Part shown: positions 6,978-49,508 of the stretch, piece after piece
Position numbering within the stretch: position 1 is the stretch's first letter
How the letters are laid out: each line of letters opens with the position of its first letter
The notes under the pieces: generated by a model
Seen by the model: only the letters and a program-made list of their open reading frames with translations
Database searches by the model: none
What the model was told of the DNA's origin: nothing
NCBI GenBank assembly: GCA_024679065.1
Contig: JAGIQG010000023.1
Span: 10,292,001 to 10,356,000, forward strand
Direction: 5' to 3'
DNA: 64,000 nt
Source of the DNA: Sphyrna mokarran
Lineage: Eukaryota
Made by a program: the position numbers and the translations under genes

Positions 6978-7014
6978 ATGTGGATTTTGATTCTCCTCAT
7001 TTGCTCTCTGCCCG
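6978..7014 (+). CDS. Gene A exon: signal peptide (MWILILLICSLP)
   Basis: ATAATG start, hydrophobic leader, G|gtgagt phase-1 donor. Paralogous exon at 39905. Confidence 0.88.
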
Positions 7015-13968: not shown

Positions 13969-14280
13969 TTTCAGGTGCATTTCGGGCAAAAAAGGAAATA
14001 ACAGGAATTGTGGGAAGAGCGATCACAATCCATTGTCACTATGATGTGTGGTACCAGTCAAATGTAAAATATTGTTGTCGTGGCTGGAATCGCTGGTGTG
14101 ATATTGTAGCAACAACAAATGGGCAAAATGGCAGAATATCAATCACAGATTACAAGTCACAAGGAATAGTCGTTGTCACTATGAAGGATCTTCGCTCAGA
14201 AGATGCAGGATGGTACAGATGTGGTATTGTAACACGTGGTCGCAAACAAATGTGTAAAGTAAAGCTACAGATATCTAACG
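13969..14280 (+). CDS. Gene A exon: V-set Ig domain V1 (CD300/pIgR-like)
   Basis: ctcctcag acceptor, 312 nt, phase 1-1, G|gtatgt donor. VSGAFRAKKEITGIVGRAITIHCHY...KYCCRGWNRWC...DAGWYRCG...KLQISN. Confidence 0.9.
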
Positions 14281-16268: not shown

Positions 16269-16592
16269 AACCCGTCTCTGTTCCTGTGCTCCAATTTTTG
16301 ACACCACTTTATGTCTCACTTCCTGGGGGCTCAGTGTCCATCTCCTGTAAGTCTGTCCAGGGATCACTTCCCATTCAGTACACATGGTATGAAAAGACCC
16401 CGTCTGAAGATTCAAAGATCTCTGACACCAATAAACTGGATATACATTGTCAATCCTTCACACAGCAACATCATCAATATTACTGCACAGCCTCAAATAA
16501 CCAGGGAGAAAAATCGAGCGAAATGGTTGTAGTGTCAGTGATCAACAGATCAGGGGAGAATTGCAGTTATAAGATACAAGATAGCCATCATG
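16269..16592 (+). CDS. Gene A exon: C2-type Ig domain C1
   Basis: tcctacag acceptor, 324 nt, phase 1-1, G|gtaagt. EPVSVPVL...SVSISCKSVQGSLPIQYTWY...YYCTASN...ENCSY. Confidence 0.9.
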
Positions 16593-17146: not shown

Positions 17147-17452
17147 GTGCATTGTGGGCAGAAAGGGAAATAACAGGAATTGTGGGAAGAGCGATCACAA
17201 TCGATTGTCACTATGGGGCAGAGTACCGGTCAAATGTGAAATATTGGTGTCGCAGCTCAACTCAGAGGTGTGATGTTGTAGCAGCAACAAATCGGCAAAA
17301 TGGCAGAATATCAATCACAGATTATAAGACACAAGGAATATTTGTTGTCACAATGAAGGATCTTCGTTCAGGAGATGCAGGATGGTACAGCTGTGGAATT
17401 GAAGAACTTGGTCTCAATCCAATATATGACGTAAAACTACAAATATCTAATG
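17147..17452 (+). CDS. Gene A exon: V-set Ig domain V2
   Basis: ctcctcag acceptor, 306 nt, G|gtacat. CHYGAEYRSNVKYWCRSSTQRC...DAGWYSCGIEELGLNPIY. Confidence 0.9.
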
Positions 17453-19109: not shown

Positions 19110-19433
19110 AACCCATCTCTGTTCCTGTGCTCCAATTTTTGACACCACTTTATGTCTCACTTCCTGGGGGCTCAGTGTCCATCTCCTGTAAGTCTGTCGA
19201 GGGATCACTTCCCATCCAGTACACATGGTATGAAAAGACCCCGTTTGAAGATTCAAAGATCTCTGGCACCGATAAACTGGATCTACATTGTCAATCCTTC
19301 ACACAGCGACATCATCAATATTACTGCATAGCCTCGAATTACCAGGGAGAAAAATTGAGCGAAATGGTTAACGTGTCAGTGATCAACAGATCAGGGGAGA
19401 ATTGCAGTTATGAGGTACAATATAGACACAGTG
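19110..19433 (+). CDS. Gene A exon: C2-type Ig domain C2
   Basis: 324 nt, phase 1-1, close paralog of 16269-16592, G|gtaagt. Confidence 0.9.
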
Positions 19434-21865: not shown

Positions 21866-22171
21866 ATGTACTGTGGGCAGAAAGGGAAATAACGGGAATT
21901 GTGGGAAGAGCGATCACAATCCATTGTCATTATGGGGCAGAGTACCGGTCAAATGTGAAATATTGGTGTCGCGGCTGGAGTGAGCAGTGTGACGTTGTAG
22001 CAGCAACAAATCAGCAAAATGGTGGAATATCAATCACAGATAACAAGATACAAGGAGTATTCGTTGTCACTATGAAGGATCTTCGCTCAGAAGATGCAGG
22101 ATGGTACAGCTGTGGAATTGAAACATCCGACCTCGATCCATTGTATAACGTAAAACTACAAATATCTAATG
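21866..22171 (+). CDS. Gene A exon: V-set Ig domain V3
   Basis: ctcctcag acceptor, 306 nt, G|gtacat. KYWCRGWSEQC...DAGWYSCGIETSDLDPLY. Confidence 0.9.
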
Positions 22172-26044: not shown

Positions 26045-26368
26045 AACCTGTCTCTGTTCCTGAACTTAGATTTTCATCACCACCAAATGCCTCATGTTCT
26101 GGGGGCTCAGTGTCTGTCTCCTGTGAGTCTGTCCAGGGATCACTTCCCATTCAGTACTCATGGTATGAAAAGACCCCGTCTGAAGACTCAAAGATCTCTG
26201 ACACCAATAAACTGGATCTACATTGTCAATCCTTCACACAGCGACATCATCAATATTACTGCACAGCCTCAAATAACCAGGGAAACAAATCCAGTGAAAT
26301 GGTTACAGTGTCAGTGATCAACAGATCAAGAGAGAATTGCAGTTATGTGACACAAATCAACAGTGTTG
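26045..26368 (+). CDS. Gene A exon: membrane-proximal C2-type Ig domain C3
   Basis: ttcccacag acceptor, 324 nt, G|gtaagt. EPVSVPELRFSSPPNASCSGG...ENCSYVTQINSV. Confidence 0.9.
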
Positions 26369-27647: not shown

Positions 27648-27732
27648 GAGCTGAATATACTTGTGAAGTTTTAACAACAAAATCACCCACGACTTCAACC
27701 ACATCTTCAGAATCTACACCTGTCAGTGAAAG
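27648..27732 (+). CDS. Gene A exon: Ser/Thr-rich stalk (GAEYTCEVLTTKSPTTSTTSSESTPVSE)
   Basis: tcttgtctcaatag acceptor, phase 1-2, AG|gtacat. Homologous to gene B exon 52079. Confidence 0.82.
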
Positions 27733-28670
27733 GTACATGTTCTCATTACAGATGCTTCCATTAACGTTGCTTTCCAATCAGAATCAATGATTATCAGTTT
27801 TGGCATGAAGATTTACAATAATTTACCTCAATGGAAATGCTAGCTGTGTTTACATGTTGCTATTGTGTTAGCTTCCTGGCAAAGTTGCTGTTTCTGTCAA
27901 TGGAAATTCAGATTAAGTGAGCTTTTTCTGTTTGCCACACCTTTGATATTGCAGCTTTCGTTCTTCATGTTAATCACTTCATCGTGAACACAATCTCATG
28001 GAGTTGTGCTTGTCACACTCCAGCGATGCCAGATTTCCTTAACCCTGTGTGTTCTGGAGTATCGCTGACAGGAACATTGCACTCACTGTCATCTTCTCCT
28101 TCTCAGTTGTCCAGTTCAATACATTGTTCCCAAACTGAGAGGGTTAAAGCCCGTTTGCTTCTGGCTGATTCCAAATTTCCTATTAGGAGGTGCACTAGGG
28201 AATTGTGAGATGACAAAAACAGAAAGTGCTTTAAAATCTCAACAGGTCTGGCAGCATCTGTGGAGAAAGAAGCAGAGTTAACATTGAGTGGAATATGATT
28301 CTATTTAGGAACAGTGTGGGATGATGTTATTGGAAGCTTTTTACTCATTGAACAGATATCTCACCATTGTTATATTGCACCAGACAATGTTGCTGTCCCA
28401 GTGACCAGTCAATTCATAACATTCTTACTTCTAAGATTTTACTCAGCATTACAGATATACTGAGGAAATTTAATGAAACCAGCTCCATTTGATCTGTATT
28501 TAATGATCATGAAGTTAATCAGTGAAACTCTAGTTGATTGCTCCAGCTAACGTGCCTTGTCTGTGTGGCGCTGCTGCAATAAGTCAGAGTGTAAAGAGGA
28601 GATTAATGTTTCAAACATGAAGCTGCTTCATTCCCTTCAAATCATTCTGTATTTCTTCCATTTTGCTCAG

Positions 28671-28761
28671 TTTCATTATCTGGAATGTGATTCGCTGGGG
28701 GCTCTTTACCCTCCTGGTGATTTGTGTTATTTCGGTCACATGGTACACGAGAAAATCTCAG
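28671..28761 (+). CDS. Gene A exon: transmembrane segment with Arg (SFIIWNVIRWGLFTLLVICVISVTWYTRKSQ)
   Basis: ttttgctcag acceptor whose phase-2 entry matches the stalk. Hydrophobic stretch, basic RK stop-transfer, CAG|gtgagg donor. Confidence 0.88.
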
Positions 28762-29469
28762 GTGAGGATTACGGAATTTACAACAATCATTCTGTAAGTT
28801 TTCCATCAATTATTTAAAAAATCATTGATCGTAAAGAGAAAAATCATTTTGTAAAGAGAAGGTTGCATTGAAATCAACGTCCCCAGGGGGAAACAGAGCC
28901 ATCGGCACCACTGGTGATTTTTTTAAAAGAGATGTAAGGGGGAGGTTTTTCACACAGGGGGCGGTGAGTGCAGAGCCAGAAGAGGTGATAAATCAGATTC
29001 TATAACAACATTCAAGAGGCATCTGGATAGAAACATGAAAAGGCAGGGAATAGAGAGATAGGACCATGTAGAGGCAAGAAAATATTAGATTAGAGAGACA
29101 TCTGTATCAGCACAGACTTGGTGGGCCTGTTCCTATATTGTTCTTTGTTCTGCCGTATTGCTCAGAACGAGTGCCATGGTGTCACACTGGTAGGACAGGC
29201 TGTGATTGAGCCCACCCTGACAGCAACTTACTTTCCAAAAGATTGAAATGCTATTTTTAAAGTCGGGCCAGATTTCTGAATGTTAAGATGGTACTGCAAT
29301 CCCCACATACACCACCCTCCCACCTCAAACACCATGTAATACCTCCACCCTCCTGCCCTCCCTCATTTCTCAATACTTCTCCTGACATTGCTTGACAATT
29401 TCCCTGGTATTTCCCTCAGCCAAGTGGCGCGAATGTTATTTGCTACATGACAGGCCAAGCGTGGATATT

Positions 29470-30150
29470 GTCTAGATCTTGCTGCAATCTTCAGTACGTG
29501 AAGAGGCACAAATCATATTAAACACTGTGCAGTCAACAGCAAACATCCCCATTTTTGACCTCATGTTGGAAAGAAGAGCATTGCTGAAGCTGGTTGGACT
29601 AAGAATCCTTTGTAACTCGTGTAGTGATGTCCTGGAACTGAGATGGCTGATCTCCAACCATAACAACCACCTTCCTTCATGCCAGGTATCACTCCAACCA
29701 ATGGAGGGCTTTCTCCCCGAGTCCCATGCATTCCGGTTTTGTTCAGGCTCTTTGATGCCTGAATCAGTCAATTGCTGCCTTGATATCAAGGGCAGTCACT
29801 CTCACCTCACCTCTGGCATTCAGCTCTTTTGTCCATGTTTTAACAAAGGCTATAATAGGGTCAGGAGTTGAGTGACCCTGGCTGACCCCAAACTGAGCAT
29901 CCACGAGCAGCTTATTGATGAGTAAATGCCTCTTGATGGCGCTGTTGATGACCTTTTCCATCACTTTACTTATTATTGAGATTTAACTGATGGGGCAGTA
30001 ATTGGCCAGGTTGGATTTGTCCTTTTTATGGAAACATAACTGAGCAATTTTCCAAGTGCCGGGAAATGCCAATATTGTAGCTGTACTGGACCAGCTTGCC
30101 TAGAGGTGCAGCAGGTTCTGGAGCAGAAGCCTTCACTATTATTGCCAGAG
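29470..30150 (-). mobile_element. LINE RT fragment (CR1/L2-like); duplicate at ~55400-56090
   Basis: MEKVINSAIKRHL..DAQFG..GHSTPD..ALDIKAA. Confidence 0.75.
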
Positions 30151-30371
30151 AATTAATCACAGCCAGAAGGAAATATTAGTTACCCATGAGAAAGTAATGT
30201 TACATTTCTTAATGTGGAATACAAATAACAATTCTTCCCAGCAATGGGTGATCAATGTGATCTCGAAACTGCCCCAAATTGTTGCCATTTCTAGAATTCT
30301 GTTCAAGACTGAAATGTCAATTGATACATCGTTCTCCCAGTCTCAATGAATCCAATGATTTTCTTTTCCAG

Positions 30372-30522
30372 TGACTCAACGAATCCGATGCTCACAGTTG
30401 GACCAAAGTGGGAAAATGAAGACTCCAGGATTCTATCTACATCGACAGAATTTTGCATCCTGGTCAAACATCCATTCCTCATCCAGCTTTGAACATTTCT
30501 CTTGACAAATCTACAGAATAAA
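30372..30522 (+). other. Gene A putative terminal exon (TGA as first codon in phase 0, then 3' UTR, AATAAA 30517-30522)
   Basis: gattttcttttccag acceptor. The paralogous exon in gene B is open for 15 codons. Poly(A) signal followed by a GT/T-rich tract. Confidence 0.6.
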
Positions 30523-31719
30523 ATGTTTTTTGTCATTTAATGATTTTAACCAAAACTTTAGTGCTGGGTCCTTCAAGTTGCATATCTACATCTGGACAAC
30601 AACTGATCTGTTTGCTGACTTAAGGTCGAGAATTCTCATTTCATATTCTTACCTTAATCTCTGTTAATTTAAAGAGTAGCACAATCTGTAAGAAATAGAC
30701 AATATGATTTTTGCAGTCACTGGAAACAATTCGCTCCAATGCTATGTTCCACGTTGAATGTGCCTGTATAACAATAGGATGGGAGTCACACTCGTTTCAA
30801 TGAGAAGTTGTTTTCTCGAGATGGCATCAGAATGAGGTGACGTCTTGCAAGCTGTGCCCAGTATATCTTCTAATTCTATCTTTTACTCTTGTTCCACACT
30901 TTAAAACTTTGTTCTAACTCTTTTAAACTACGACTGTATTGCTACATTCTGCACTTGCTCCATTCCTTCTCTGTGAACAGTATGCTTTGTCTGTATAAAA
31001 CACAAGAAACTAAACTTTTCACTGTATAGCAATATCTGTGACAACAATAAAACAAATCAAATCAAGCATGTATTTCCTTTTACTTCAGAAAGCTGAATTT
31101 CTCTTAATTTCATGCTGTTATGATTTCACCTTTATTTTAGCAAACACAATCTACACTCTGAAAATTTCCCTGTTTCCCAATGTTTACAAGTTCAGTTTCA
31201 AGTCTGAAGCCTAATTCCCCGTCTGAATTCCACCTTACTTGTTCCCCCTCCGCACTGGGTCTCTGTGTGTGTGGGAAATCTGCTCGACAACAGCCAGTCC
31301 TGGATGGTCGAAAATTACAACTGCACATTGTGAACAGTGAAGCCATTGTCTTTATCCCCACAAGAAACATCTTTGACTCCATCTACCTCCCTGTCCAATT
31401 GTGTCCTCGTCCACACTGTAGGTACCTCCTCACTCAGCTATTCCAATGTCTGGGCATCTCCCATCCAGCATTAAATTCACCCCATCAAAATCCCTCTGCC
31501 AGTTTTACTGGGATAAAGGCTGTATATAAATGCAAGTTTTGCTCCTTGAACTCCACTCCACCCAGAAGGAAATAAAACAAATTCAGGATAAACCTGCCCT
31601 CAACTGGCAGGAACTGTTTTTCAAGTAGTTGCTGCTTGATTTTACTGGAGGTTGCCAATTAGCTGGTAATTCTACTGAAAACATCAGAAATCAAATTAGA
31701 GACTCCCAGTCGCTGAGCT

Positions 31720-31828
31720 ACCTACTGCCATACTGGTCTCAAAATATCTAACCGCAGAAGCTAAAAAGACACAGGCCTGGTTAGTTCTTGGATGAGAGAC
31801 TGCCTGGGAATACCAGGCACAGTCGGCT
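31720..31828 (+). pseudogene. 5S rRNA-derived pseudogene or SINE3-type head
   Basis: cctactgccatac...gaagctaa...ggcctggttagttcttggatgagagactgcctgggaataccagg follows the 5S A-box, IE and C-box, with substitutions and a deletion. Confidence 0.8.
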
Positions 31829-32055
31829 ACACAACAAGATATCCCAGTTGGTGCCAGCAATTTTCACCTGACTTCACTTGGAAACAGAGCACCTTTTGTC
31901 AATTGTACTTGGATTCAGGGAGGGGCCAATCCCAGTACTGGGATATTGAGCGTGTAATGGGGTCTGACAAGTTCAGGAGTGAATTTGGCCTCTCTCCCTC
32001 AGACTCTCAGTGTGCACGTTACAGTATGTGTCCTTCCCTCAGTCTGTCACTAAAC

Positions 32056-32260
32056 CCAAGAAGTTTATTTGGTAACAAACACCACTAGCTTTCAGGGCTT
32101 TGTTCCTTTGTCAGCTGAGTGGGGAATTCACCTCATGAAAGGGCAAAGCCCCGAAAGCTTATGGCGTTTATCACCAAATAAACCTCTTGGACTTTAACCT
32201 AGTGTTATGAGACTTCTTACTGTGTTTACCCCAGTCCAATGCCAGCATCTCCACATCATG
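32056..32260. repeat. Penelope-like palindromic element (same family as 5981-6159)
   Basis: ccaagaagtttatttggt...accaaataaacctcttgg fold-back, followed by gagacttcttactgtgtttaccccagtcca. Confidence 0.7.
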
Positions 32261-33664
32261 AATAAACCCGAGACTCAGACTATTACTGATAGTACAGTGT
32301 GAGTGTCGCTTATACAGGAGCACTTGTATTGATGTCTCTCTTTGTAGGGGTTAATGTATCTGAGGTTGAATTCCCAGCAAACCTCTCTCTTTACGGCAGC
32401 AACTTCCCCTATATCCCCATCACCCTCCCCCACCAGCGCCACTCCACCCTTCACTGTATCATAACAGAGAGACCAATTCCTTTCTCCACACGTAACAGAT
32501 TGCTGTTCGAGACCTGATTTTCTTATTGGTTTCAATAGTTGAAAAGGTTTTGTTTGATATAGAATGCTGCCAGTGTATGTTCCATCTTAAGTGAACAGAA
32601 ACTCAGTTTAACCACAATTTATTCTCTCCTCAAATAAGCTGATGCTTGATGACCAGCAGCTGAACTCTGAAAAAAATATTTTCAAGTTCATTTCACCTCA
32701 TGGTGGTTTAACCACGAGAAAAATGTGTTGCTGGTCTCAAGGTTGGTGTGTGACAGAGAGATGTGAACACACAATAGCTGTTAGGTACTAAATGAAGGGT
32801 TGTGGTTGCAATTGAGAGAAGGAGATCTGCATCGTTGCAGGACTTGTTAGAGGCAAACATCATGGTCACTGATTCATTATTGGGCTCCATGTGATACAGG
32901 TGGGGAAACAGTGAACAGGTGTACAGGCTTCATAGGAACCGCACCATGAGTAACTTACCCCAGAGGGAGGAGCTACTGAGTTGGATGAAGACTCATGATT
33001 CATAATCAAAAGCAAAGGCCAAAGCTGAGTGAAAATGGATGGATTGATTTCCATCGATTCCCAAAAATCCTGAAACAGTTAAACTGTGCTGGGAAACGAG
33101 GCTGTATTCTTGCAGCTCAGAACATTGATGGTCCTTTCTGGAATTGGGTGGCAGTTTCTTCAGGACTCATGCTTATGTTCATCAACGGTGCACCATCCCA
33201 CACTGAGCCAAGCAAGGATAAAATGTTGGCTAAGCATGGATTTTATGATCAGCGTGTGGGCCCTCACAGCCTGGTATTAAAGGAAGAGATGAGTCTACCC
33301 CCATCTCGCTGCTTTACCACTCACCCATTCAATGCCCTTTGGGATTGAGACCTCCTTCAGGATGGAAGTCTCAGTTCTGGGAATGGGCTGCCAATCAAAT
33401 GGCCCATCGTTCACACCCCATTATAGCATCGGTAAGTTCTAGACTGTGATGTTTTCAGCAATAACACTCACAAGCCAATCGCAAAGATCATTGGGGAAAT
33501 AATAATTACCCTGTTAATTAGTACATTTAATTAATTGTGAAGACTTATATTTTTTGGGCAGTGAATTCAGACACCCACCAATCTCTGTGTGAAAAGGTTT
33601 TTTTGTCTAATTTTTCTACCAGTTCCCTCAAATCTATGCCCCCTGGTAATTGATGTCTCAGCTG

Positions 33665-34015
33665 GGGGAGGTGATGGCCTATTGCTGAAGTTTTAATCCA
33701 GAAACTCAGCTAATGTTCTGTGGATTCAGGTTCAAATCCTGCAAAGGCAGATGGTGGAATTTGGAATCAATAAAAATAATCTTGAATTAAGAATCTATGG
33801 TGTCCATGAAATGATTGTCGATTGTGGGAAAAGCCCATTTAGTTCACTAATATCCTTTAGGGAGGGAAATCTTCCATCCTTAGCTGGTCTAGCTTCAATG
33901 TGACTCCAGAATCACAGCAATGTTATTGACTCTCAACTACCCTCCAAAGGTAACTAGGGATGGGCAATCAATGATGGTCAGGCAGTGACGCCCCAAGACC
34001 CATCAATGAATAAAA
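33665..34015 (+). mobile_element. Second tRNA-derived SINE family nested in a CR1 tail (other copies 41520-41785 minus, 45200-45370 minus, 59620-59970 plus)
   Basis: ggttcaaatcc B-box, ggcagatggtggaattt, agggagggaaatct, tail tagggatgggcaa...aatgaataaaaa. Confidence 0.7.
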
Positions 34016-35457
34016 AGTAACAGGCTTTTCCTGTCCATCTTATCTAGGCCATTCATTGTTTAGTACATCATAATTAGATCATCCTTCTTCTAAGGAAAAC
34101 AACTTTAGCCCATCCAATCTTCTCTTTTAGCTGTAGTTTTCCCTGCCAACATTTTTGTAAACCTCCTCTGTGCTCACTTCAGAACAATTCCGTCCTTCCT
34201 ATAATGTAATGACCAGAACTGTACACAAAATTCTAGCTGTGGCCTAACCAGTGTTTTGTACAATTCCAACATTACACCCAATAAAGGAAAGCATTCACCG
34301 ACCTCCAATTCTCCAATACTGTGCCCGTTACACTCTCGCTTTTCACTGTTTTGGCTCCGTTTTTCATCGCGTAGCCAGTCATTTTTGATGCATTAATCTT
34401 TGAACTTTGTAACAGTTGTCTTTCCAAATTTTAGGATTTTTGCTCCTGCTTTTTTTGTTCTTTTACGTAATGGTGCCAAACCTAAATGTATTAAGCTCAC
34501 TATCACCAGAATGGACCCCACTGCTACTTCATCCACTCGCTCAAGTTAACTTCCTGAGACAAAATCCAGACCCTTCCCCTCTCATTGGGCTTTTTAGTAC
34601 TGGCTAAAAAACTTCTCTTGAATTCAGTCCAAGAATGTTGTGCCCCTGTGTTGCTCACATTGTTCATTCTCCAGTTTATACTCGGGATGATTGAAGCCCC
34701 AACTGTTACTGCCCTATTGTTTCTGCATTCAGAAATGTTCCTGCGTATTTGCTCATCTAAATCTTTTCCACTACTTGGGGGGCTTATTCTGAAGGTACAT
34801 GAAGAATGGTGCTCACTGAGAGCTCAGACCATCATCAATACTGTTAATAAACAGGATATTGTGGGGAGTGCAGGCTGTGACACTCAGCTACTCATCAGCA
34901 GTCTTCAGCCCCTGCCCACTGAGCACAGTTCTTGGGAAGGTAAAGCCCTGCCTCAGGCTGATCTATATATCGTGGGTGGGTGACTGAATCGTTCCTGAGC
35001 AAATGGGACTGAAGTCCTCCCAGGCAGGAATCGTGCAGCAGGAGTTTGTTTTGCAATTGTTGATCTCAGGGGAAGGGACAATAAAAAGTTGCTCAGTGCC
35101 AGCCTGCACAGATATGGTTTTGACCACAGAACCTGTCACTTTACAGGGTGTTGAACCATTTGCTCAGATCATCATCGAGTTGTGAATAAACAGTAAATCA
35201 GCAGGTGCACTTGTGAATCTACTTCACACATTCAGCGCTCTGTGGGAAGGGGCAATGATGAATCTTCTTGTCCAACACTTGCATCATTTTATACATTTTA
35301 TACTCGAGCTCAGAAATTTCCAACCAGGGGATTCCTGAGAATGTTTCAGGGGGCCCGTTGTAAAAGGCAGATACAATTCGCCTCATTTATCGAATACATG
35401 ATTGTGTTGGTGAACAAGGACAAGCTGATTAAACTCACTCAGATTATATTTATATTC

Positions 35458-35752
35458 GGGCAGCACAGTGGCGTAGTGGTTAGCATTGCTTCCTCATAAC
35501 ACCAGATGCTTGGGTTCAATTCCTGGATTGGGTCACTGTCTGTGTATAGTTTACACTTACTTCCCTGGGTTTCCTCCGGATGCTCTGGTTTTCTCCCACA
35601 GTCCAAATGACATGCTGGTTAGGTGCATTGGCCACGCTAAATTCTCCCTCAGTGTACCCGAACAGGTGCCAGAGTACAGAGACAAAGGGATTTTCATAGT
35701 AACTTCATTGCAGTGTTAATGTAAGCCTATTTGTGACACTGATAAATAAACT
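35458..35752 (+). mobile_element. V-SINE (cacagtaac-type tail); duplicate at 61414-61708
   Basis: gggcagcacagtggcgtagtggttagc head, conserved core and tail. Confidence 0.85.
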
Positions 35753-36254
35753 TCAAGCTTTTAAGATCTTCCTCCATGTCAACTTTCTACATTTATTGCA
35801 ACATGACAAACGCAGAACATCAGGAATTACGGATACAGAGGGAATCTCATTGAAATAACTCTTCAATCTCCTCAGTATAAAGAAAGTTGTAATGAAAGTC
35901 TCCAATCTCAGTATCTTTGTGGAATCAATATTAAACAGAATGTGATTGAAACACAGCTCCGTACAAAGAACAGGATTTGAATTCCAAACTCTATTTCTGA
36001 CAATCGGACTCTGTTGACCCGACTGCAGAGAGTTCAGGTGCTTGTTGACAGAGCCAAGGTCAAATAAATCCCTAAATGTGTCCAAATGTTCGAGTGGAGT
36101 TTATCCAGCGTATCAGGGACATTTCCCAGTACGGATCACTGCAATAATTCTTGCTGGTTCAGACTCCAGGTGATGTCTCCAGTGACCGATCTCCTCACGT
36201 GTCACAGAATTCCCTTCAGCCAAGAACTGGGGGAGTTGCATTCAGCAGAGTGGA

Positions 36255-36575
36255 ATCATAGAATCATAGAAACTCTACAGTACAGAAAAATCAACCCCCC
36301 GAGTCTGCACCAACCACAATCTCACCCAATGCCCTCCTCATAAATCTCTACCAACTAATCCCCCTTTCCTATGAATCCCAGGACACTAAGAGCAATTTTT
36401 AGCATTGCCAGTCGATCTAATCCGCACATCTTTGGACTGTGGGAGGAAACCAGAGCACACGGAGGAAACCCATGCAGATGTGAAGAGAATGTGCAAACGG
36501 CACACAGACAGTGACACAGGAATTGAACCCAGGTCCCTGGAGTTTTGAAGTAGCAGTGCTAACCACTGTGCTACC
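36255..36575 (-). mobile_element. HE1-like V-SINE; duplicate at ~62210-62530
   Basis: Reverse complement of head (gctaaccactgtgct), core and tail (catagaatcatagaa). Confidence 0.85.
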
Positions 36576-38714
36576 TTTCTACCCTGTGGATGGAGGCGCA
36601 CAGAGCCAATGACAGTGTATCAGTCTGCCTGATACTCTCGATGCTCTGAATTTTAGGCTTGACATGGAAGCATGATTAGCAGCCTGGAGGCAGGTGTGGT
36701 ATCCACTGCTCAAGCCTCTGACCCCAATTCCATTCTGGCCGGCCAGTGGGAAACATGTGGGGAATGGCTCACTATTAACTTGTATGGGTGGCAGCAGGGC
36801 ATATACCAGGTGTAATGAGGTTTCTGGGGGACGGGGGGATTTGGAAGTGGAGACCAGGAAATTGTTGAGTCCAAGGCAGATGAGGAGTCTCTGGAGTTGT
36901 CCATCAGATGGCAGTTGTTGGATTTCCAACAAGATGCACAAGAAAATGTGGAAAAGATCCCTGAACATCTGTGTCCCATTGTCCCTGCGTTGGGTGCAGC
37001 ATGTGGAGTGTGAGCGCTGCATTGACCCTGCACTCTGAACACAGCCTCTTCCATAGAGAGAATGATGGCAGTCATGGACACATACTCAAAGGTTTCTGGG
37101 ATTGTGTTCAGACGTGCAAGCCAGCAAACTGGCCGTGACCACAGCAGCTCACTGCTAATGTGAGCAATGTGTGAACAAAAGCTGTTGTTTTTAATACTTA
37201 GGTGATTTTTGTGTTGTTCTGTGAACTGGGTTATGTATCTTTATATGTGACTAATAACCTTCAACTGGGACTAGTAATCTGCAGGATTAAGGATATCAAA
37301 GAAATCTGGGTGTGCAAGATGCACTTGGAGTAAATCTGGCCAAGTTGAATTTTCAGAAAGTAACTATGACATGGATAGAAATTTGCATTAGGAGATAAAG
37401 ACGTTTCTTGTGTTCAGCTGCTAAATTTAAAAGGGAAGTAAAAGGTTTTACAATTTGGAAAATGTTCTTAATAAATAACGCAAAGTTAATCCATTTTGTT
37501 TCACCCAAAAGTGGTATCATATGTTCTGAGAAATAGAAAATTTTAAGAAGTATAAGGAGAAAGGTAAAAAGATAAAAGAGAAAACAAGGGGACAATTCTC
37601 CCATCTCTCTGCACTACTCTATTCTGCCCAGTGGGTAGGCCATTTCGGGGGCTTCTTGCTGGACACTACGGCCTCCGGGAGTCTCCGTGTGTCAGGTTTC
37701 CAGCGCCGTCAGCTCTGCGTGATCTCTGGTGCAGAGCTGCATAACTTATTCAACTTGTCATTCAAATCCTATTTAAGTATTATTAGCAGGATCAGGACTG
37801 CGATCTCCGGGGCCTGTTAACCCCTTCCCCACACACCAGCAGTGTTTCATTCCAACCGAGTTTATTATAGTCCAACCCTCCCCCCACACTTGTGGGGATC
37901 TGGTCGCCCAACCCTTCTGGAACGAAGAGGGGTGGGGGTGTGGAGACAATTGAGACCACCCCCTCCCCCCCCCAAGAATGTGGCACTGTAATCTCCCACT
38001 CAGTCGAGGCCTGCACCAACTACACAGGCCAGGCTGCCAAGTTAATCAAGGTCTACAGGGCATCAGAGTCAGCCAGTTGCCTCCAACCAAACTGCCAGCA
38101 ATGGGGAACTACTGAGACATCAGGCTCACAAATACAAATGTAAGTCACTATGATGGCCCTCACCATTCCAGGGTATGCCCTGTCCCACCAGTGGGCAGAG
38201 CCAACAGAGGCAGCAGTGGCACAGTGATACATTTTCAGGAGCGAGTTACCCTGGGTGACCTCACCATTGGCTCTCTGCCCCTTTAATTGTGACGATACTT
38301 TTCCACATTCTGCGTCTACCAGCCGAACAAATTATTGTGAGATGATGCAATGATGTCATCCTCCAAACGTAATCGCCTGCAATTCCCAGGATGATCAGGT
38401 ATGCCACATGCCCACTTTCAGAGAGTAAAATTCAGTTCAAATGTTCAAACAATATGTCACTCACCAGGATCATTCATCACTATCTATGTCTTGGCAAATA
38501 CACGTCCCCATGTCACAGGGTGGTGAGTAGTTATATCCTCAATTTGGAATTGAATCCTGTTCCCAGTTACTCAATCACAATTTCCTTTGACTCAGAGCCT
38601 TCTCTCTGTGAATTGAGATCCTTTTCTGACTGAATTCTGCCCCAGAACGTGTGTGTGGATAAACGGAGTTGGGGGTGTTTTTCTGCTGCACATCAAGGAG
38701 CTCTGATCTCCTCC

Positions 38715-39600
38715 CTATCAAACTTCCCTGTCCCTATACTCAAATCCTCTCACTATGAAGGTCAACATACCATTTGCTTCTTTATTGTCTGCTGTACCTG
38801 GACACTTACTTTCAGTCACTGGCACACAAGGACAGCAAGACCTTGTTGAATATCCACATCTCTCAATTTACATCCATTCATCTTATTGTTACCCAGCTGG
38901 ATAATCTCACATTTATCCACATTATGTTGCATCTGCCATACAGATGGCCATGCACTCAGCCTGTCCAAATCACACTGAAGCATCGCTGCATCTTCCTCAC
39001 AGCTCACCCTCCCACCCAACTTTGTATCATCTGCAAATTTGGAGATAATACGTTCAGTTTCCTCTTCCAAATCATGTATGCATAATGTGAACAGTTGGGG
39101 TCCTACCACAGACCCCTGCAGCACCCCATTGCCTGGGTTCGATTCTCAGACTGGGGTTCGATTCCCAGCTCGGGTCACTCTCCGTGTGGAGTTTGCATGT
39201 TCTCCTCGTGTCTGCATAGGTTTCTTCCAGTTGCTCCAATCTCTTCCCACAGTCCAAAGATGTGCGGGTTGGATTGATTGGCCATGCTAAAATTGCCCCT
39301 TAGTGTTCTAAGGTGCTTAGGTTAGAAGAATTAGTGGGTAAAATATGTAAGGCTATGGGGATAGGGCCTGGGTGGGATTGTGTTCCATGCAGACTTTATG
39401 GGCCGATGGGCCTCTTTTTGCACTATAGGGTTCTATGGTTACTACGGTTACTACTAACTAACTGCCGATCAGAAAAAGGCGCATTTGTGCCGACACTTTG
39501 TTTCCTGTCTGCTGACCAGCTTTCTGTCCATCTCAATATATCACCTCAATCCCATGTGCTTTAACATTATGTAAATTGCTCTGGCTGTCATCTCCACACA
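38715..39600 (-). mobile_element. CR1 RT fragment with a nested HE1-like SINE (39150-39437, plus)
   Basis: QGSVVGPQLFTL..DLEE..ISKFADDTKLGG..LQCDLDRL. Absent from the homologous gene A upstream region. Confidence 0.8.
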
Positions 39601-39759
39601 CAATTAATTATAAAACTTGGCTTGGGTCAATACTATCCATAGCTCTGACTTTTTAATACCTTGCTTCCAGAAGTTTACTTTCTTTCAACAATAATTACTT
39701 CATCTGCTAAATGTAGCTGACAGAATTTCAGGTTCTGAGAAGCCTGACTTTGCAAAGTG

Positions 39760-39795
39760 GCTAACTGTGGTTTCATGACCCCATTTCCTGCTGTC
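39760..39795 (+). promoter_or_regulatory. Putative promoter of gene B (RUNX + ETS motifs)
   Basis: TGTGGTT 39766-39772 and TTTCCTG 39784-39790 at the same spacing as in gene A. Confidence 0.45.
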
Positions 39796-39904
39796 TTCTT
39801 CTTCATTTAATTTTCTGATACAATTTATTTTTGACATTTATTTCAGTGTGAGACAAGGAGCTGGGGGACCGACGACAAGCACTGACCTGATCTCCAACAC
39901 AACA

Positions 39905-39941
39905 ATGTGGATTTTGATTCTCCTTCTTTCCTCTCTGCCTG
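39905..39941 (+). CDS. Gene B exon: signal peptide (MWILILLLSSLP)
   Basis: ACAATG start, G|gtgagt phase-1 donor, paralog of 6978-7014. Confidence 0.88.
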
Positions 39942-40819
39942 GTGAGTAACAGCCAGAGCTGGATAGTCAGATAATCAGTGATAGTTTAACTCTAGTCTAC
40001 AGGTTATATAAATATGAGAGAGAGAGAGAGAGAGATGTTTAAATATTTGGAGACCTGTAAAAGCACAAAATGAGGATTTTTATTGCAATGGATAGAGTCT
40101 GTGGGGCAGATTCTCCGATCCTGCTCATAGCAGGGATTTTCCCATCCCACTGTAATGAAAGGAGATTTGTCTGAGCTTCTGATTCCCTGTCCTCTCTGGC
40201 AGCGGTGGTGGGACACGAACTGCCTGAGGATTCTGGCCCTCAGTCTCCTACTGTTTGTGGGAATGGAAGATGGGATGTAATGATGCCAAACAGGTTAACG
40301 ATGCCAAACAGGACTTGTGACCTGCAAATTCTTCCAATACAGTGAAGGCAAGAGAGAGAGATACACAATCAGCCATGTCTTGATGGGCAGTGGTGTCCCT
40401 CCTGCTACAGTCTCTGGATTCAGGCCAATGACCAGTTCTTGGTAGAATAAGGTACTGGGAACAGGCATACACATTTGCTGTATCTGCTTCATCTTTTTAT
40501 AGATTTGGGAAGTTGTCTGTATTTAAAGGAACAAATACTCAGCAAATATAAATCGCTAATATTTGTGAAATTTTATACAGTAACTCCTTGTAATTATATA
40601 TTGCATCATGGAAATATTTAGCAAATAAACAAAACAGCAACACGCATCGTGAATGGGAATTTGAGGACAATTTAATTTTTAATTTTCAATGAGCCACATT
40701 TTTAAAATGAAAGGCCTTTTTTATTTTGTATTCATTTTTTATTTATATTTTAGAATTATGAAGGCTGCAGCATTAATAACCCCACAAATACGTCTCAGCT
40801 TTATACAAGTTGAAAATAG

Positions 40820-41118
40820 GGGCAGCATGATGGCACAGTGGTTCTTACTGCTGTCTCACAGCATCAGGGAGCCAGGTTTGATTCCAGGCTTGGGAGACTG
40901 TGCAGAGTCCACATGTTCGCCCTGTGTCTGCATGGGTTTTCTCCAGGTGCTCTGCTTTTCTCCCACGTCCCAAAACATATGCTGGTTAGATGCATTGGCC
41001 GTGCTAAAATCTCCCTCGGTGTACCCAAACAGGCACCAGAATGTCACGCCAAGGGGATTTTCCACATTAACTTCATTGCAGTGCTAATGAAAGCCGACTT
41101 GTGACTAATAAATAAACT
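40820..41118 (+). mobile_element. V-SINE (cacattaacttcattgc tail)
   Basis: Head, core and tail match 12968 and 35458. Confidence 0.82.
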
Positions 41119-41789
41119 TCAGAGTTGATGAGATATTATTTTATGAACCTCTGTCAGTGTCACTGATCCTCATGGCAGATGATTGATCTATATTACTTTT
41201 CCCATAAACAATCTTTTTCTTCTAATTGTTTAAGTCAGTGGATTTTAGTTATTTGTGCTGCCCATTTTAATATGATAAGATTACGCTGCAGTGAGGTTTT
41301 GGCTAATGACCTCGATGCCATTAATGATGAAATATAATTTCAAACAAATGCGGTTACACTCCCAGTCCCAGCTACACTCAGCCTCTCTGTTAACTCATCT
41401 CTAATATTTCCTGGATCTAATTTCTCATATCCTCAGGCTTTCTCTCTAGTTCTTTAATTGTCTTGGAATCCCCCTCCTGTCATTTATTGTAAAATCTTTC
41501 TGAAATGTCAACTATATTGCTGTGGACCTGGAGTCACCTGTAGGCCAGATCGGGTAAGGAGGGCAGATTCCCTTCCCTTCAGGACATTAATGAATCAGAT
41601 GGGTTTTTATAACAATCGACAATGCTTTCCTGGTCATCAGCAGATTCTTCATTCCAGATTTTTTTTTATTGAATTTGAGTTCCAACATCTGCTGTGGTGG
41701 GATTCAAACCTAGGTCTCCAGATCATTGGCAGAGTTTCTGGATTAATTGCTTAGCGCTAATACCACGAGGCCATTGCCTCCCCTTATGT

Positions 41790-43590
41790 AAGAGTATGAA
41801 AGTCAGCTAGCAGTGAACATAATCACTGACTGTGAAAGTTTCTATATGTAAAGATATGTATAGAGAAAAAGATTGACTAAAACAAATGTCGGTCCTTACA
41901 GTCAGAAACAGGAGAGTTCATAATGGGGAATAAAGTGACGGCTGATGAATTAAATTTGTACTTTGCTCCAGTCTTCATAAAGGAAGATATGAATAATATA
42001 GCATAGGTTCAGAGAGAAACATGTTTAAGTGAGAAGCTGGAAGAAATCAGCATTCGTAGACAGTTTTGGGGAAATTGATAGGATTGAAGGTGGATAAATC
42101 TCCAGGTCCTGATAATCATCATCTCAGAGTACTTAAACAAATTGCCCAGGAAATAGTAGATCCATTAGCCATCATTTTCCAAATTCTTTAGACTCTGGAC
42201 TGGTTTCTACAGATTGGAGGATAGTTAACATAAGCCTGCAGTTCACAAAGGGAGTAAAGAGAAAACAGGGAACTATAGACCAATGAGACTAACATCAGTA
42301 TTGGGGAATTTGCTAGCATCGATTATCAAGGATTTCATAACTTGGCATTTGAAAGGCAGTGCTATCAGACAAAGTCAGCATGGATTTACAGAAGGGAAAT
42401 CATGCTTGATGAAACTATTAGAATTCTTTGAGGCTGTAACTAGTACATTTGGCTGAGGAGAACCAGTGGATGTGGTTTATTTAAGCTTTCAAAAGACTTT
42501 CGACAAGGACTCACATAACATACAAGTTTGTAAAATTAAAACACATAGGATTGTAGTCGTCTCGAAATGGATAGAAATCTGATTAGCAGATAGGAAGCAA
42601 AGATTTATTGGCAGTCAGTGACTAATGGGATCTGCAGGCATCTGTGCTAGTACCCCAATTGTTCACATCATATATTAATGATTCTGAACAGAGAACTGAA
42701 TGTATTACCTCCAAGTTTACAGATGATACAAAATTAGGTACGATGAGCTGTGAGGAGGATACAGAGATGTTTCAGCTTGATTTGGACAGGCTGAGTATAT
42801 CAGCATCTACATGACAGATACAGTACAACGTGGATTAATGCGAGGTTATCCACTTTGATAACAATAATAGGAAGATAGATTACAACTTGAATGGATGTAA
42901 ATTGAAAGATGTGGATACTCAGCAAGACCTTAAAGTCTTCGTCCACCAGTCGCTGAAAGTAGCACACAGACACAGCAGGCAGTAGAGAACGCCATCATAT
43001 CGAGAGGATTTAACTATATTGCTCGGGATGTTTTACTGCAATCGCATACATGAGACCACAACTACAGTATTCTGTGCAGTTTTGGTGGAAGATATCTTTG
43101 CTACAGAGGGAGCACAGCGAACGTTTACCAGGCTGACTCTTGGGATGGCAGGTCTGTCATATGAGAGGAGACTAAGTCAGTTAGATTTATATTCACTAGA
43201 ATTTAGAAGACTGAGAGGGGGTCTCATAGAAACTTATAAAATTCAAACAGGATTAGAAACAGTAAATTCACTGAGAATGTTCCCAATGATGGGGGAGCCC
43301 TGAACTAGGAGGTCATAGTTTAAGGGGTAAATATTTTCAAACTGAGGCGAGGAGAAATTTTTTCACCCAGAGGATGGTGAACGCAGAATTCACTCCCACA
43401 GAATGGAATTGAAGCCAAAATATTTTAAGAAGAAATTGGATATAGTTCTTGGGGCTAAGGAGATCAAACGGATATGGGGGGAAGAGGGAATCAGTATATT
43501 GAACTCAATGATCAGCAATGATCAAAATGAATGGTGGAACAGGCTTGAAGGGCCGAATGCCCTACTCCTGTTTCTAGTTTCTATGTTTCT
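41790..43590 (+). mobile_element. Degraded 5'-truncated CR1 LINE
   Basis: Remnants of DKSPGPD, NYRP, QHGF..GKSC, KF.DDTK and GLSYERRL..LYSLEFRRLRG.LIETYKI. Tail tttctatgtttct. Confidence 0.85.
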
Positions 43591-44112
43591 TCGGTCCTGC
43601 TCAGTGATCAGTCTCCAAGTTTCTGAATCTCCTCTGGCCAATCCTCAATCTCTTTCCTTTCTATGTTTGTCAGTAATGTTCTCATCATCTCCAATTCATC
43701 CTACAGTACATGTTATAGCAACAAAGTTGAGAAGATGGAAAATGTGCTGAATCCTCACACAACACAACACTTCCAGTTTTCCACACTCCCTTCATTCCCC
43801 TATCACCCTCCCCAGACCACAATACCCCCAAGCCCGCCAAAGGCAAACAAAAAGGACTCCGTTTCCCCAAAGTCACCCAAACCTCCCCCTGATTTCCACT
43901 CACCTCCCCAGGAAGCATCTAATCCCAACAGACCTCCAGCCATTCCCCAAGGTTACCCATCACCAAGGCCTGCAAAAATCAACCCTGCGACATTCCCAAT
44001 CCATCCACAATCTGAATATCCCTTCTTGCCAGCATCAAATTCATGTCTAACTCCCAACACACCCACTGGCAGTGCCGCAAAATTCTCAGGTCTGTACAAG
44101 GGTCTAAAAGAT

Positions 44113-44385
44113 AAACTTTATTAACTAGCCATAAGTGTGGCTTATATTAACACTGCAATGAAGTTACTGTGAAAGGTCTTTAGAAACCGCACTCCGGCAC
44201 CTGTTCAAATCAATGCACCAAATCAGCACATCTTTCAGAATGTGGGAGGAAACCAGAGCACCTGGAGGAAACCCACACAAACACAGGGAGAATGAACAAA
44301 CTCCACATGAATAGTGATCCACATCGGGAATCGAACCTAGATCCCTGGTGCTCTGAGACAGCAATGCCAACCACTGTGCCGCCCC
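44113..44385 (-). mobile_element. V-SINE
   Basis: Reverse-complement head ccactgtgccgccc and tail cactgcaatgaagttactgtg. Confidence 0.82.
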
Positions 44386-44689
44386 ATGTCTATTTCTACG
44401 TGCAATATCTTTTGATGAAGTTACACACTGGAGTGAAACCCCAGCGTGAGGCAGAACCTCAATTTCTAGCTCCTTTACAATCTCCCAGCTCCAACCTGTG
44501 AGTCTAGAAAATACCCCAAATGTTTCAAAAGCAAACCATTGACTGTGAAATACTTTGGGACACTCTGAGTTTGTGGAAAGTCTCTATTTAAATGATTATG
44601 TTAATCCGCATGGAATTTAACTCATAAGAATGTACGTATTTGAATGAAGCAATTACTTCTGTTCAATTTCTGAATTGTTGTTTCCTCAG

Positions 44690-45004
44690 TTTCAGGTGCA
44701 TTGTGGGCAGAAAAGAGATTCAAAGGAGTTGTGGGAAGAGAGATTTCAATAAATTGTCACTATGGTGCAGGGTACGAGTCACATGTTAAATATTGGTGTC
44801 ACGGCTGGACTCGCCATTGTACAGTTGTAGCAACAACAAACTGGCAAAATGAAAAAATATCAATCAGAGATAACAATTCACAAAGAATATTTGTTGTCAC
44901 TGTGAAGAATCTTCGCTCAGGAGATGCAGGATGGTACTGCTGTGGGATTGAAAAAGCTGGGGATCTCGATCCACTGTATGCTGTCGAGCTTCAAATATCT
45001 TACG
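44690..45004 (+). CDS. Gene B exon: V-set Ig domain (CD300/pIgR-like)
   Basis: tttcctcag acceptor, 315 nt, phase 1-1, G|gtacat. VSGALWAEKRFKGVVGREISINCHY...KYWCHGWTRHC...DAGWYCCGIEKAGDLDPLY. Confidence 0.9.
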
Positions 45005-45734
45005 GTACATTTCTAAGTGATTATCTGTATTCACCTCGACTGAAATATTCGATCCATGTTTTATCCGTGGGGAAACGTAGACAGCTCCGATATTCCGAGC
45101 AGTACAGAGTCTGGTAGCTAGAAGGCAGAGGTCAGGGAAACTGACTTATGTTACATAAATCCAATGTTGGGAGTTTGCATTCAGAAAACAAGTAAAATTT
45201 GGGCAATAACAACAGTTTTGTGGTCATCTGTAGATTCTATATCCCAGTTATTTTTTATTGAATTCGCATTCTGCCATCTGCCATGGCAGGATTCAAACCC
45301 AAATCCCCAGAACATTCACTAAGTTTCCAAACAGTCCAGCAATAATACCACTAGGCCATCACCTCCCCTATGGAATCCCTCCAAAGAATTGACCAAGATC
45401 CAAAGGCTTCCTGATATAATGGGTGATTCAAGATATTGAGGTCATCCGAACAGAGTCCAAATTTACAAGTGAATTAACCTGGAGTTGTCATATTGTCTGG
45501 ATGGTAAAAGCAACCTCTTTATCAACTGTTGAGACACTAGCTCGATTTTCATTCCGGAGGCAGGTCGGGGAAATTTCGAAAAATACCAACCCAACCTGCC
45601 TGCCTCGCGAGAAACTGCCCACGAATGATGAGATCATCATTGCTACGGGGGCTGGGGTAGGGGAATGTTGGTTGTGGACTGGATACAGGCCAGCCGGGCA
45701 CAGGAAGATTGGCACAGAGAGTCAAAGTTTAAAA

Positions 45735-46030
45735 AGTTTTATTTATTAGTCACAAATAGGCTTACAATAACACTATAATGCAGTTATGTGAAAATCCTCT
45801 AGTCACCATACTCCAGCGTCTATTCGGGTACACTGAGAGAGAATTTAGCATGGCCAATGCACCTAACTTGCATGTCTTTCGGACCTTGAGAGGAAACCAG
45901 AGTACCCGAAGGAACCCATGCAGACATGGGGAGAACGTGCAAACTCCACATAGACAGTGACCCAAGCCTGGAATCGAACCCAGGTCCCTGACATGGTGAG
46001 GCAGCAGTGCTAACAACTGTGCCACGTGGT
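45735..46030 (-). mobile_element. V-SINE
   Basis: Reverse-complement head, core and tail. Confidence 0.82.
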
Positions 46031-46729
46031 GTGGTGACAGGCTGTTTAAAATGTTCCCCCTCATACCATGGGATTTTGTCCCAGGAAAAACGAAGGGCCC
46101 TCCATCCGTCATCTCTCACAGCACACAAAAGATGTGAATGGTTGGGAAGGGCTTGGCTGGAAGAGTCATTGGGGGCATAGGGTTTGGGCAAAAGGGCAGA
46201 ACAAAGGTCTGACTGGGTGTGGGTAAAGGAGCATTTGCTTCATGAGAGGACATGGAGAGTGGCAGAGCGGACGAGCAGGAACCTTTGTTTTAACTTTGCT
46301 TAACTTAAAACAACTCGGTGAAAATCCCGCTCATTATCCCGAGCAAACCTCCAGATCAGAATCAAAATCATTGCTATTTTCACAGGGGCTACTTGAGATT
46401 TGTTCATGGGTAATGTTTTGATTTTAAGAGCCAATCTTATGAATTTTGGGTATTCATTTTTCATTCTGATTTACTCCTTTACTCAGTGATGGAATTGTCA
46501 GATTAGATTCTGAATTCATGTTCATTTTTAGAGTTTCTTCATTGTGTATTGACATCATTAAATCTTTCAATTTTAACTCCAAAGAAATAATACTTGATTA
46601 TTTATTATAAATGAATCTCCCATTCTTGATTTCCAAACTGAAGATTCTAGATATTCGCCAAAGGTAACTGATTAGGAATGATTCTCAGGTGTACAGCCCT
46701 GGGCAGTGGGAAGGGAGGAGGTGAAAGGT

Positions 46730-47037
46730 ATCATAGAATCTCATAGAATCCCTACAATATAGAAAGAGCCCATTTGGCCCATCGAGCCTGTAACAACCAC
46801 AATCCAACCACTATCCCTATATCCCCACATGTTTACCTTGCAAATCTCCGGATACTAGGGTCAATTTAGCATGGCCAATCAATCTAACCTGCGCATCTTT
46901 GGATTGTCGGAAGAAAATGCAACACTCAGAGGAAACCCACGTAAGATGCGGAGAGAATGTGCAAATTCCATACAGACGGTGACCCAAGCCAGAATCAAAC
47001 CTGGGTCCCTGGCACTGTGGAGCAGCAGTGCTAACCC
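46730..47037 (-). mobile_element. HE1-like V-SINE
   Basis: Reverse-complement core and catagaatc tail. Confidence 0.82.
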
Positions 47038-47299
47038 ATACAGGTGTTGTAACTCCTGCTCCTGAATGAGAAGATATTTTCTCTAAGTTGCTAAAATTAA
47101 ACATATTGTAGAAAGATTTTGTCTGTTGTGCGGTTTGACAATGCGACAGACTGACTGACTGACATTCTATTTTCACTGTCCAAGATCAGTTTATGTTTCT
47201 GCTGTCTAACTATGTGCTGCATCTCTCTTTGGAAAGCTGGTTTGAAGATGTAACATTTGACAGTGCTTATAGCAAATCCCCTCATTATTACAAAAATAG

Positions 47300-47480
47300 G
47301 AAAATGCTGGAAAATCTCAGCAGGTCTGACAGCACGTGGAGAGAAAATAGCACCAATGTTTCGAGTGCAGATGACCCTTGGTCAGAGCTGGCTAAAGGTC
47401 ATCTAGGCTTGAAATGTTGGTTCTATTCTCGCTCCACAGATGCAATCAGATCTGCAGAGATTTTCTAACACTTTTCTGTT
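47300..47480. repeat. Palindromic Penelope-like element (half copies near 28215-28290 and 54325-54375)
   Basis: gaaaatgctggaaaatctcagcaggtctga... folds onto ...tcagatctgcagagattttctaacacttttc. Confidence 0.65.
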
Positions 47481-48924: not shown

Positions 48925-49380
48925 CTTCATTCATTCATTCATTCATGGGATTTGGGCATCGCTGGCTGGCCAGCACTTTTTGTCCATCCCTACTTGCCCT
49001 TGAGAAGGTGGTGGTGAGCTGCCTTCTTGAATCGCTGCAGTCCACGTGCTGTGGGTTGATCCACAATGCTATTAGGGAGGTAATTTCAGAATTTTGATCC
49101 CGCAACTGTGAAGGAACGGTGATATATTTCCAAGTCAGGATGATGAGTGGCTTGCAAGTGGTGGTGTTCCCAGGTATCTGCTGCCCTTGTCCTTCTAGAT
49201 GGAAGCAGTCGTGGGTTTGGAAGGTGCTGCTTAAGGATTTTTGATTCATTGCGGAACTTGTAGATGGTAAACAATGCTGTGACTGAGTGTCGGTGGTGGA
49301 GGGGATGGATGTTTGTGGATTTGGTGCCAATCAAGCAGGCTGGTTTGTCCTGGATGGTGCCAATTGTGTTGGTATCCATC
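48925..49380 (-). mobile_element. LINE 3' fragment (CR1/L2-like) inserted in the intron before the gene B C2 exon
   Basis: IQDKPACLIG..NIHPLHHRHSV...LPSRRTRAAD, tail (tgaa)n. Interrupts a block homologous to 16080-16270. Confidence 0.75.
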
Positions 49381-49508
49381 CCATGGAGGAGTAGAAGTCA
49401 GATTCCAACATGGTTAACCACGCCTGAGGTTCTGAGGGGCAGAGAGCAGGAGAGTATTTTATTTTTAGATGTTCAGTCAGTGTCTAAATGTTTGCTTCTT
49501 CTCCACAG

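Follow-up and report, generated by a model that had tools for sequence, protein, structure and literature searches.

The window analysed here, 64,000 nucleotides of the Sphyrna mokarran genome, contains two immune receptor genes (see the table). Their gene models were built from protein relatives, and all exons are open and have AG/GT at every junction. Gene 1 comprises a signal peptide, three V-C2 modules, a stalk and a transmembrane segment in 701 residues, and gene 2 a signal peptide, one V-C2 module, a stalk, a transmembrane segment and a tail in 309 residues. The layout of gene 1 recurs in a Mustelus model (P0008). The first codon of the last exon reads TGA in gene 1 and TCA in gene 2, which leaves gene 1 with a tail of six residues. 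The stalk-like copy at 52861-52960 possesses its own possible acceptor and an intact donor, and might be a remnant or an alternative stalk exon. An RNA run on 49300-56600 returned repeat matches and two diverged C2 pieces, one of them crossing an intron-exon border, and no splice joint. At 468-1436, the forward strand also holds a 323-aa open frame, which we take to resemble ORF1 of a CR1/L2-type retroelement.

Table. Features of the two receptor genes in the window, and adaptor exons found elsewhere in the genome
Feature	Position	Strand	Remark
Gene 1 signal-peptide exon	6978..7014	+	ATG to phase-1 donor
Gene 1 V domain 1, CD300/pIgR-like	13975..14280	+	C-strand Trp of the KYWC motif exchanged for Cys near 14073
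Gene 1 C2 domain 1, FCRL-like	16269..16592	+	family assigned via the gene 2 paralogue
Gene 1 V domain 2	17147..17452	+	gene model
Gene 1 C2 domain 2	19110..19433	+	gene model
Gene 1 V domain 3	21866..22171	+	gene model
Gene 1 C2 domain 3, membrane-proximal	26045..26368	+	gene model
Gene 1 stalk exon, Ser/Thr-rich	27648..27732	+	phase-2 end
Gene 1 Arg-type transmembrane exon	28671..28761	+	W-x-x-x-R-W anchor, phase 2 in, phase 0 out
Gene 1 last exon	30372..30419	+	TGA as first codon; tail stops with the transmembrane exon
Gene 2 signal-peptide exon	39905..39941	+	gene model
Gene 2 V domain	44696..45004	+	best solved single-domain match CD300LF; nearest paralogue the downstream ITIM gene, 84% nt, 67/101 aa
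Gene 2 C2 domain	49509..49832	+	FCRL5 as best solved match; 103/104 residues shared with the downstream ITIM gene
Gene 2 stalk exon	52079..52199	+	type seen on ITIM genes; phase-2 end
Partial second stalk-like copy	52861..52960	+	84% to the first; directly beyond the stretch matching the ITIM gene
Gene 2 Arg-type transmembrane exon	54760..54850	+	identical to the gene 1 exon
Gene 2 last exon	56317..56364	+	15 residues without Tyr, then stop
~26-kb tandem repeat, first copy (anchor, tail, spacer, gene 2 ectodomain)	28235..52856	+	matches 54324 onward
FcR-gamma transmembrane exon	L102:1489-1578 (G000:C446:11045007-11045090)		Asp present
CD3-zeta transmembrane exon	L101:1480-1581 (G000:C335:17364945-17365031)		Asp present

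The transmembrane exon of gene 1 spans 91 nucleotides between an AG at 28669-70 and a GT at 28762 and, after a one-base phase-2 entry, is translated as FIIWNVIRWGLFTLLVICVISVTWYTRKSQ. Arg is the eighth residue of the hydrophobic helix and lies in its outer third. Because both stalk exons end in phase 2, the gene models allow this single frame. Annotated proteins of many sharks and rays keep the exon in frame, and it is hence not a chance reading. It is the membrane-anchor exon of a shark immune receptor, a real and conserved feature. The preliminary description had called the transmembrane segments of both genes identical and their tails free of ITIM and ITAM motifs. Both statements are borne out: the two copies of the exon show 0/91 nucleotide differences, and past the Arg either gene has a single, juxtamembrane Tyr, with YxxL/I/V/M motifs absent from both tails.

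That the receptors carry CD300-like heads proved correct for the V domains, which are CD300/pIgR-like, and not for the ectodomain as a whole, which is no plain CD300, as an FCRL-like C2 domain follows every V. Among solved structures, CD300LF was the best single-domain match to the gene 2 V domain (E 3.7e-17), and pIgR outscored it only when summed over five domains; the best match to the C2 domain was FCRL5 (E 2.9e-40). The V domain is of the CD300/pIgR/TREM type with the second Cys pair present. Mammalian CD300 proteins have a single V domain (PMC12447643, available part), whereas the shark genes have V-C2 modules. A search among longer proteins with the gene 2 V domain gave 23 matches, all from sharks or rays and mostly named pIgR-like, the closest ones from Mustelus asterias; the Arg-type anchor is present in 10 of these 23, which were retrieved with the V domain only.

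Of the 55 V-domain matches in the genome, 52 belong to a single cluster on contig C805, in which genes of the Arg type and of the ITIM type are intermingled. Two very long genes on its minus strand (C805:10052773-10084647 and 10159109-10203758) have more than 10 V-C2 modules each and ITIM-type 3' ends, and most of their V domains are devoid of the second Cys pair. An adjoining cluster of CD300-like genes without C2 domains (C805:10454174-10670000) includes at least four genes with a W-x-x-x-R-W anchor lacking the Asn, two of them identical and ~30 kb apart. For a comparison with the CD300 locus at 17q25, the sole flanking gene identified is represented by an exon of the CCD48 family (EF-hand and coiled coil; L090:4707-5795) ~135 kb before the cluster. 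Three weak V-domain matches lie at C446:28048217-28159570, on the same contig as FcR-gamma, and are possibly another pIgR/CD300-related group. The MDIRs of the clearnose skate, reportedly described by Cannon et al. in 2006, are said to include one form with a positively charged transmembrane residue. According to the available part of PMC3031540, they are a cartilaginous-fish multigene family of activating and inhibitory receptors resembling CD300, TREM, FCAR and pIgR, as the shark set does; both are built of modular Ig domains, a likeness drawn from the description of the MDIRs only. What sets the shark set apart from the MDIRs is that the anchor, the phase of its exon and the swap with the ITIM-type anchor have been mapped in it. 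The shark cluster thus likely encodes an MDIR-like paired receptor family.

The anchor had further been read as an LRC-style NxxR module joined to a CD300 head, and on this point our results disagree. In the sources available, the features that define LRC anchors are NxxR, DYT and acidic residues at the C-terminal end of the transmembrane segment (PMC6557307), and the Xenopus XFL genes place transmembrane segment and tail on one exon, with exons under a phase-1 rule (PMC2413239). The window copies do read N-x-x-R, and the Arg stands near the N-terminal end of the helix, as in NxxR (TM1) anchors. We collected 25 Arg-type anchors from 37 database proteins, leaving out three isoforms. The residue three before the Arg was K in six of them, D and S in five each, N in four, A and T in two each and E in one; among the anchors found through the V domain alone, it was Asn in 3/10. 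The Asn of the window copies hence appears to be incidental. The family signature is rather W-x-x-x-R-W-x-x-F-x-x-L, whose RW and F counts partly reflect the pattern used for selection; the W-x-x-x-R-W anchor is found also on single-V CD300-like genes further along the cluster, in catsharks and in horn shark. DYT is absent in the window copies, which have Phe at R-7, and 19 of the 25 relatives have Tyr or Phe there, seven residues before the Arg, where LRC receptors have the Tyr of their DYT motif. An acidic residue at the C-terminal end is likewise absent in the window copies; in 7/25 relatives, all rays, D or E occurs only after the first cytoplasmic Arg. The shark exon, moreover, is entered in phase 2, and the tail lies on a separate exon. 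With three features of the NxxR module missing, the anchor does not qualify as a member of it; the aromatic residue at R-7 would speak for a remote kinship.

A profile of five genomic anchors, run against 1.84 billion representative proteins, matched 14 proteins at E ≤ 0.001, 14/14 of them elasmobranch and none from any other group, within the little reach that a 30-position profile has. A search with P0029 for bony-fish carriers of the anchor returned eight matches, all from sharks. A word-seeded search of shorter proteins with the P0017 anchor gave one candidate and none that scored, and an atlas search with the anchor part reached a top score of 0.79, under the noise. Against PDB sequences, the transmembrane profile had 0 matches at E ≤ 10, and such helices may be undeposited. 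The anchor appears to be native to the whole shark and ray CD300/pIgR-like cluster, a graft from mammalian-type receptors is unlikely, and the origin first proposed for it is probably wrong.

True homology with the TM1 module of LRC and Xenopus FcR-like receptors, by jawed-vertebrate inheritance or as a graft onto CD300-like heads, would leave the mechanism the same and differ in origin; we regard it as rather doubtful. The N-x-x-R of the window copies and the aromatic residue at R-7 would agree with it, as would the FCRL-like membrane-proximal domain, given that Xenopus FCRL-like receptors use NxxR anchors (PMC2413239, in part). The scarcity of Asn, the missing DYT and acidic end, the exon layout opposed to that of XFL (PMC2413239) and the elasmobranch-only yield of the short profile argue against it. 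As far as the available texts describe them (PMC6557307, PMC2413239), the NxxR receptors FcalphaRI, GPVI, OSCAR, LILRA, NKp46, TARM1 and XFL have in common with the shark receptors an Arg near the top of the helix, a short tail, predicted FcR-gamma coupling and ITIM forms in the same cluster, whereas the shark set differs in its unconserved Asn, its W-x-x-x-R-W, its lack of DYT and acidic end, its separate tail exon with phase-2 entry and its V-type heads. Many NxxR receptors are also reported to reach the surface without FcR-gamma (PMC6557307, PMC2413239, both in part).

The Arg itself is kept in 28 of 29 distinct anchors of the Arg type, a set picked by the RW pattern or the profile, so that the count is partly built in. 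Conservation showed no significant concentration on the Arg face of the helix, with 3857/10000 shuffles as high. An outer-half Arg also occurs in 3/21 ITIM-type anchors, and therefore the Arg alone is no proof of an activating role. ITIM-type anchors with such an Arg (P0015, P0018 and C805:10106628) are possibly dual-function receptors or cases of drift. An Arg-type gene on the minus strand (C805:9965826-9986299), in which Cys replaces the anchor Arg, provides a natural control for this residue; its V domain is 97% identical in DNA to that of the ITIM gene at 10393124. Interface residues often stand between Trp residues. Flanked by two Trp, the Arg could thus snorkel to the head groups and bind no adaptor, and the receptor would serve next to its ITIM partner as a decoy or in adhesion, without signalling. 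The absence of significant one-face conservation and the Arg in some ITIM anchors fit such a role. However, only 17 apolar residues follow the Arg, compared to ~23 in the ITIM anchors of the cluster, so the Arg should sit inside the membrane, and a contact with a partner would better explain why it is nearly invariant in sharks and rays and always joined to a short tail. We hence consider snorkelling unlikely.

The identity of the two anchor exons is part of a ~26-kb tandem repeat, whose second copy starts at 54324 and continues past the window, across the ectodomain of an ITIM gene (G000:C805:10357868-10378107). This downstream gene has an uncharged anchor, three ITIM-type motifs and a fourth tyrosine motif. 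Gene 2 has signal peptide, V, C2 and stalk type in common with it (identities in the table), and anchor and tail in common with gene 1. Similarity to the ITIM gene stops at 52856, within the stalk-transmembrane intron and just before the partial stalk copy, and similarity to gene 1 sets in at 54324. The ITIM gene has a phase-2 stalk donor and a phase-2 transmembrane entry, like the Arg exon. With the same donor and the same entry phase, either anchor type can replace the other without a frame shift. Divergence between the repeat copies is a mosaic: it amounts to 0-2% at 30.5-39 kb and at 47-50 kb, rises to 3-18% at 40-47 kb, around the V domain, and is 4-8% near the anchor. This mosaic rules out a single clean duplication and calls for at least two events, either an ancient pair that conversion has renewed or a recent duplication followed by replacement. 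For the V domains of gene 2 and its ITIM neighbour, positive selection was not significant (dN 0.194, dS 0.112, p = 0.13). The two appear to be a clear genomic case of an activating/inhibitory pair.

The two window genes might also be decaying, unexpressed by-products of unequal crossing-over, the anchor type being functional elsewhere in the family. The nonsense codon that opens the last exon of gene 1, the Trp-to-Cys exchange in its first V domain and the broken paralogues nearby would be in line with decay. It is quite improbable in view of the uniformly open exons, the intact AG/GT junctions and the Mustelus model that shares the gene 1 layout; moreover, transcript decay is not expected from a stop codon in a last exon. 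One broken Arg-type paralogue, at C805:10116863-10125886, has a stop in the anchor and breaks in V and C2.

Exchange of anchors may reach well beyond this pair. We built a tree from 36 membrane-proximal C2 domains, 19 of Arg-type and 17 of ITIM-type genes, leaving out rows without C2 and one gene of the Sphyrna genome whose domain the search pattern missed. On this tree the anchor type changed 13 times, against a mean of 12.2 for shuffled labels, and 390/500 shuffles were as low. Anchor type thus appears unrelated to ectodomain ancestry across species. Mixed sister pairs came from sawshark, catshark, electric ray, sevengill and lamniforms, and from gene 2 with its downstream gene. A tree of the transmembrane segments (53 rows) separated the types with one change and support of 100/99, the labels being taken from the same transmembrane features. 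Some database models are fused neighbours, which limits detail and leaves the anchor-C2 pairing unaffected. Within the cluster, for three of the four Arg-type V-C2 genes without an anchor stop, the closest V domain belongs to an inhibitory-type gene (97.0%, 96.4% and 84.3% nucleotide identity); for gene 1, this applies to the first V domain only. Species-wise clustering of C2 domains can come from ectodomain conversion as well as from anchor swaps. From these comparisons, the Arg anchor appears to be an old shark-and-ray module, which likely has been exchanged repeatedly with the inhibitory anchor.

In mammals, paired receptors are described as evolving in concert or being homogenised by gene conversion (PMC3210942, PMC12447643, both in part). 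The pattern in sharks and rays is of this kind. CD300A and CD300C share with the shark receptors a CD300-type V head, short-tailed activating forms beside ITIM partners and ectodomains shared lineage by lineage (PMC12447643, PMC3210942). Human CD300C couples to FcR-gamma via a Glu and has one V domain, whereas the shark receptors have an Arg and V-C2 modules (PMC12447643, in part). Homogenisation in the gene 2 pair affects C2 (99%) and spares V (66%), which is opposite to what is usual in paired receptors.

Which adaptor might the Arg engage? NKp30 carries a V-type head. According to the available part of PMC13107469, zeta and FcR-gamma dimers are engaged through their Asp pair by an Arg close to the helix top, as in TCR-alpha and CD89 and presumably in NKp30 and NKp46. 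NKp30 and TCR-alpha thus have in common with the shark anchor an Arg in the top half of the helix, whereas their ectodomain families are unrelated and, as far as described there, they have no ITIM twin by cassette exchange (PMC13107469). Partners of DAP12 and DAP10 have a central basic residue, a Lys for DAP12, and NKG2D uses an Arg with DAP10 (PMC13107469, in part). Coupling of the shark receptor to DAP12 or DAP10, as in most CD300 and TREM activators, would suit its CD300/TREM-related V domains and the NKG2D precedent (PMC13107469), but it is very improbable with an Arg near the helix top rather than at its centre (PMC13107469), and a DAP10 family search, which is weak for a gene split into exons, gave nothing above the cut-off.

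Two transmembrane exons of the zeta/gamma family, assigned by their best PDB matches, are present in the genome, and both have the Asp. The first cytoplasmic K/R is 19 residues away from the receptor Arg and 16 residues away from the Asp of shark FcR-gamma and zeta; hence receptor Arg and adaptor Asp should lie within one turn of each other. CD89 is described as tolerating a one-turn shift (PMC13107469, in part). Arg depth, short tail and ITIM partners make FcR-gamma or zeta coupling the best inference, and the shark receptor likely couples to FcR-gamma or CD3-zeta; the coupling first proposed for it is probably right. The lack of one-face conservation, the outer-half Arg of some ITIM-type anchors and the paralogue with Cys for Arg count against it. 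In the available text of Akula et al. 2014 (PMC4016189), homologues of FcR-gamma, FcRL and pIgR are absent from sharks and placed at the origin of bony fish. The FcR-gamma exon (the transmembrane exon only) and the FCRL-like domains of the Sphyrna genome appear to contradict this account.

We hence propose, with a probability of roughly 0.62, that the anchor belongs to a short-tailed V/C2 Ig receptor, likely activating, whose outer-third Arg pairs with an FcR-gamma or CD3-zeta dimer, and that it is exchangeable with an inhibitory cassette, gene 2 being a product of such an exchange. The Arg would pair with the two aspartates of the adaptor dimer, which would supply ITAMs to the short-tailed receptor, and clustering by ligand would trigger activation. 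Arg and inhibitory cassettes enter at the same phase-2 intron, where recombination or gene conversion can likely place either of them beneath any one ectodomain. Gene 2 would thus combine the ectodomain of the downstream ITIM gene with the anchor of gene 1 and act as the activating twin of its neighbour. A literature search on shark CD300/pIgR-like receptors with an Arg anchor and on MDIRs found no description of the anchor or its exchange in what it covered, which included few subscription papers and not the main ones on MDIRs and teleost pIgR-like receptors.

We may further speculate that two ancient, interchangeable anchor cassettes sit at one phase-2 intron of shark and ray CD300/pIgR-FCRL mosaics and that the Arg cassette is the ancestor of the FcR-gamma anchor of LRC and XFL receptors, which we hold to be rather unlikely. 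If true, FcR-gamma-coupled paired receptors would date to the jawed-vertebrate ancestor, the CD300/pIgR and FcR/LRC families would be tied to one source, and sharks would have candidates for their missing activating receptors of antibodies or microbes.

Coupling by a basic residue, pairing and conversion are well known in mammals, and the design seen here, with near-identical C2 and diverged V domains in gene 2 and its ITIM neighbour, is a paired-receptor design of a known kind that is little described in sharks; known biology would thus be extended and not overturned. With an FcR-gamma transmembrane exon in the same genome as a large receptor cluster with a conserved Arg anchor, these receptors would be a concrete, testable client for shark FcR-gamma.
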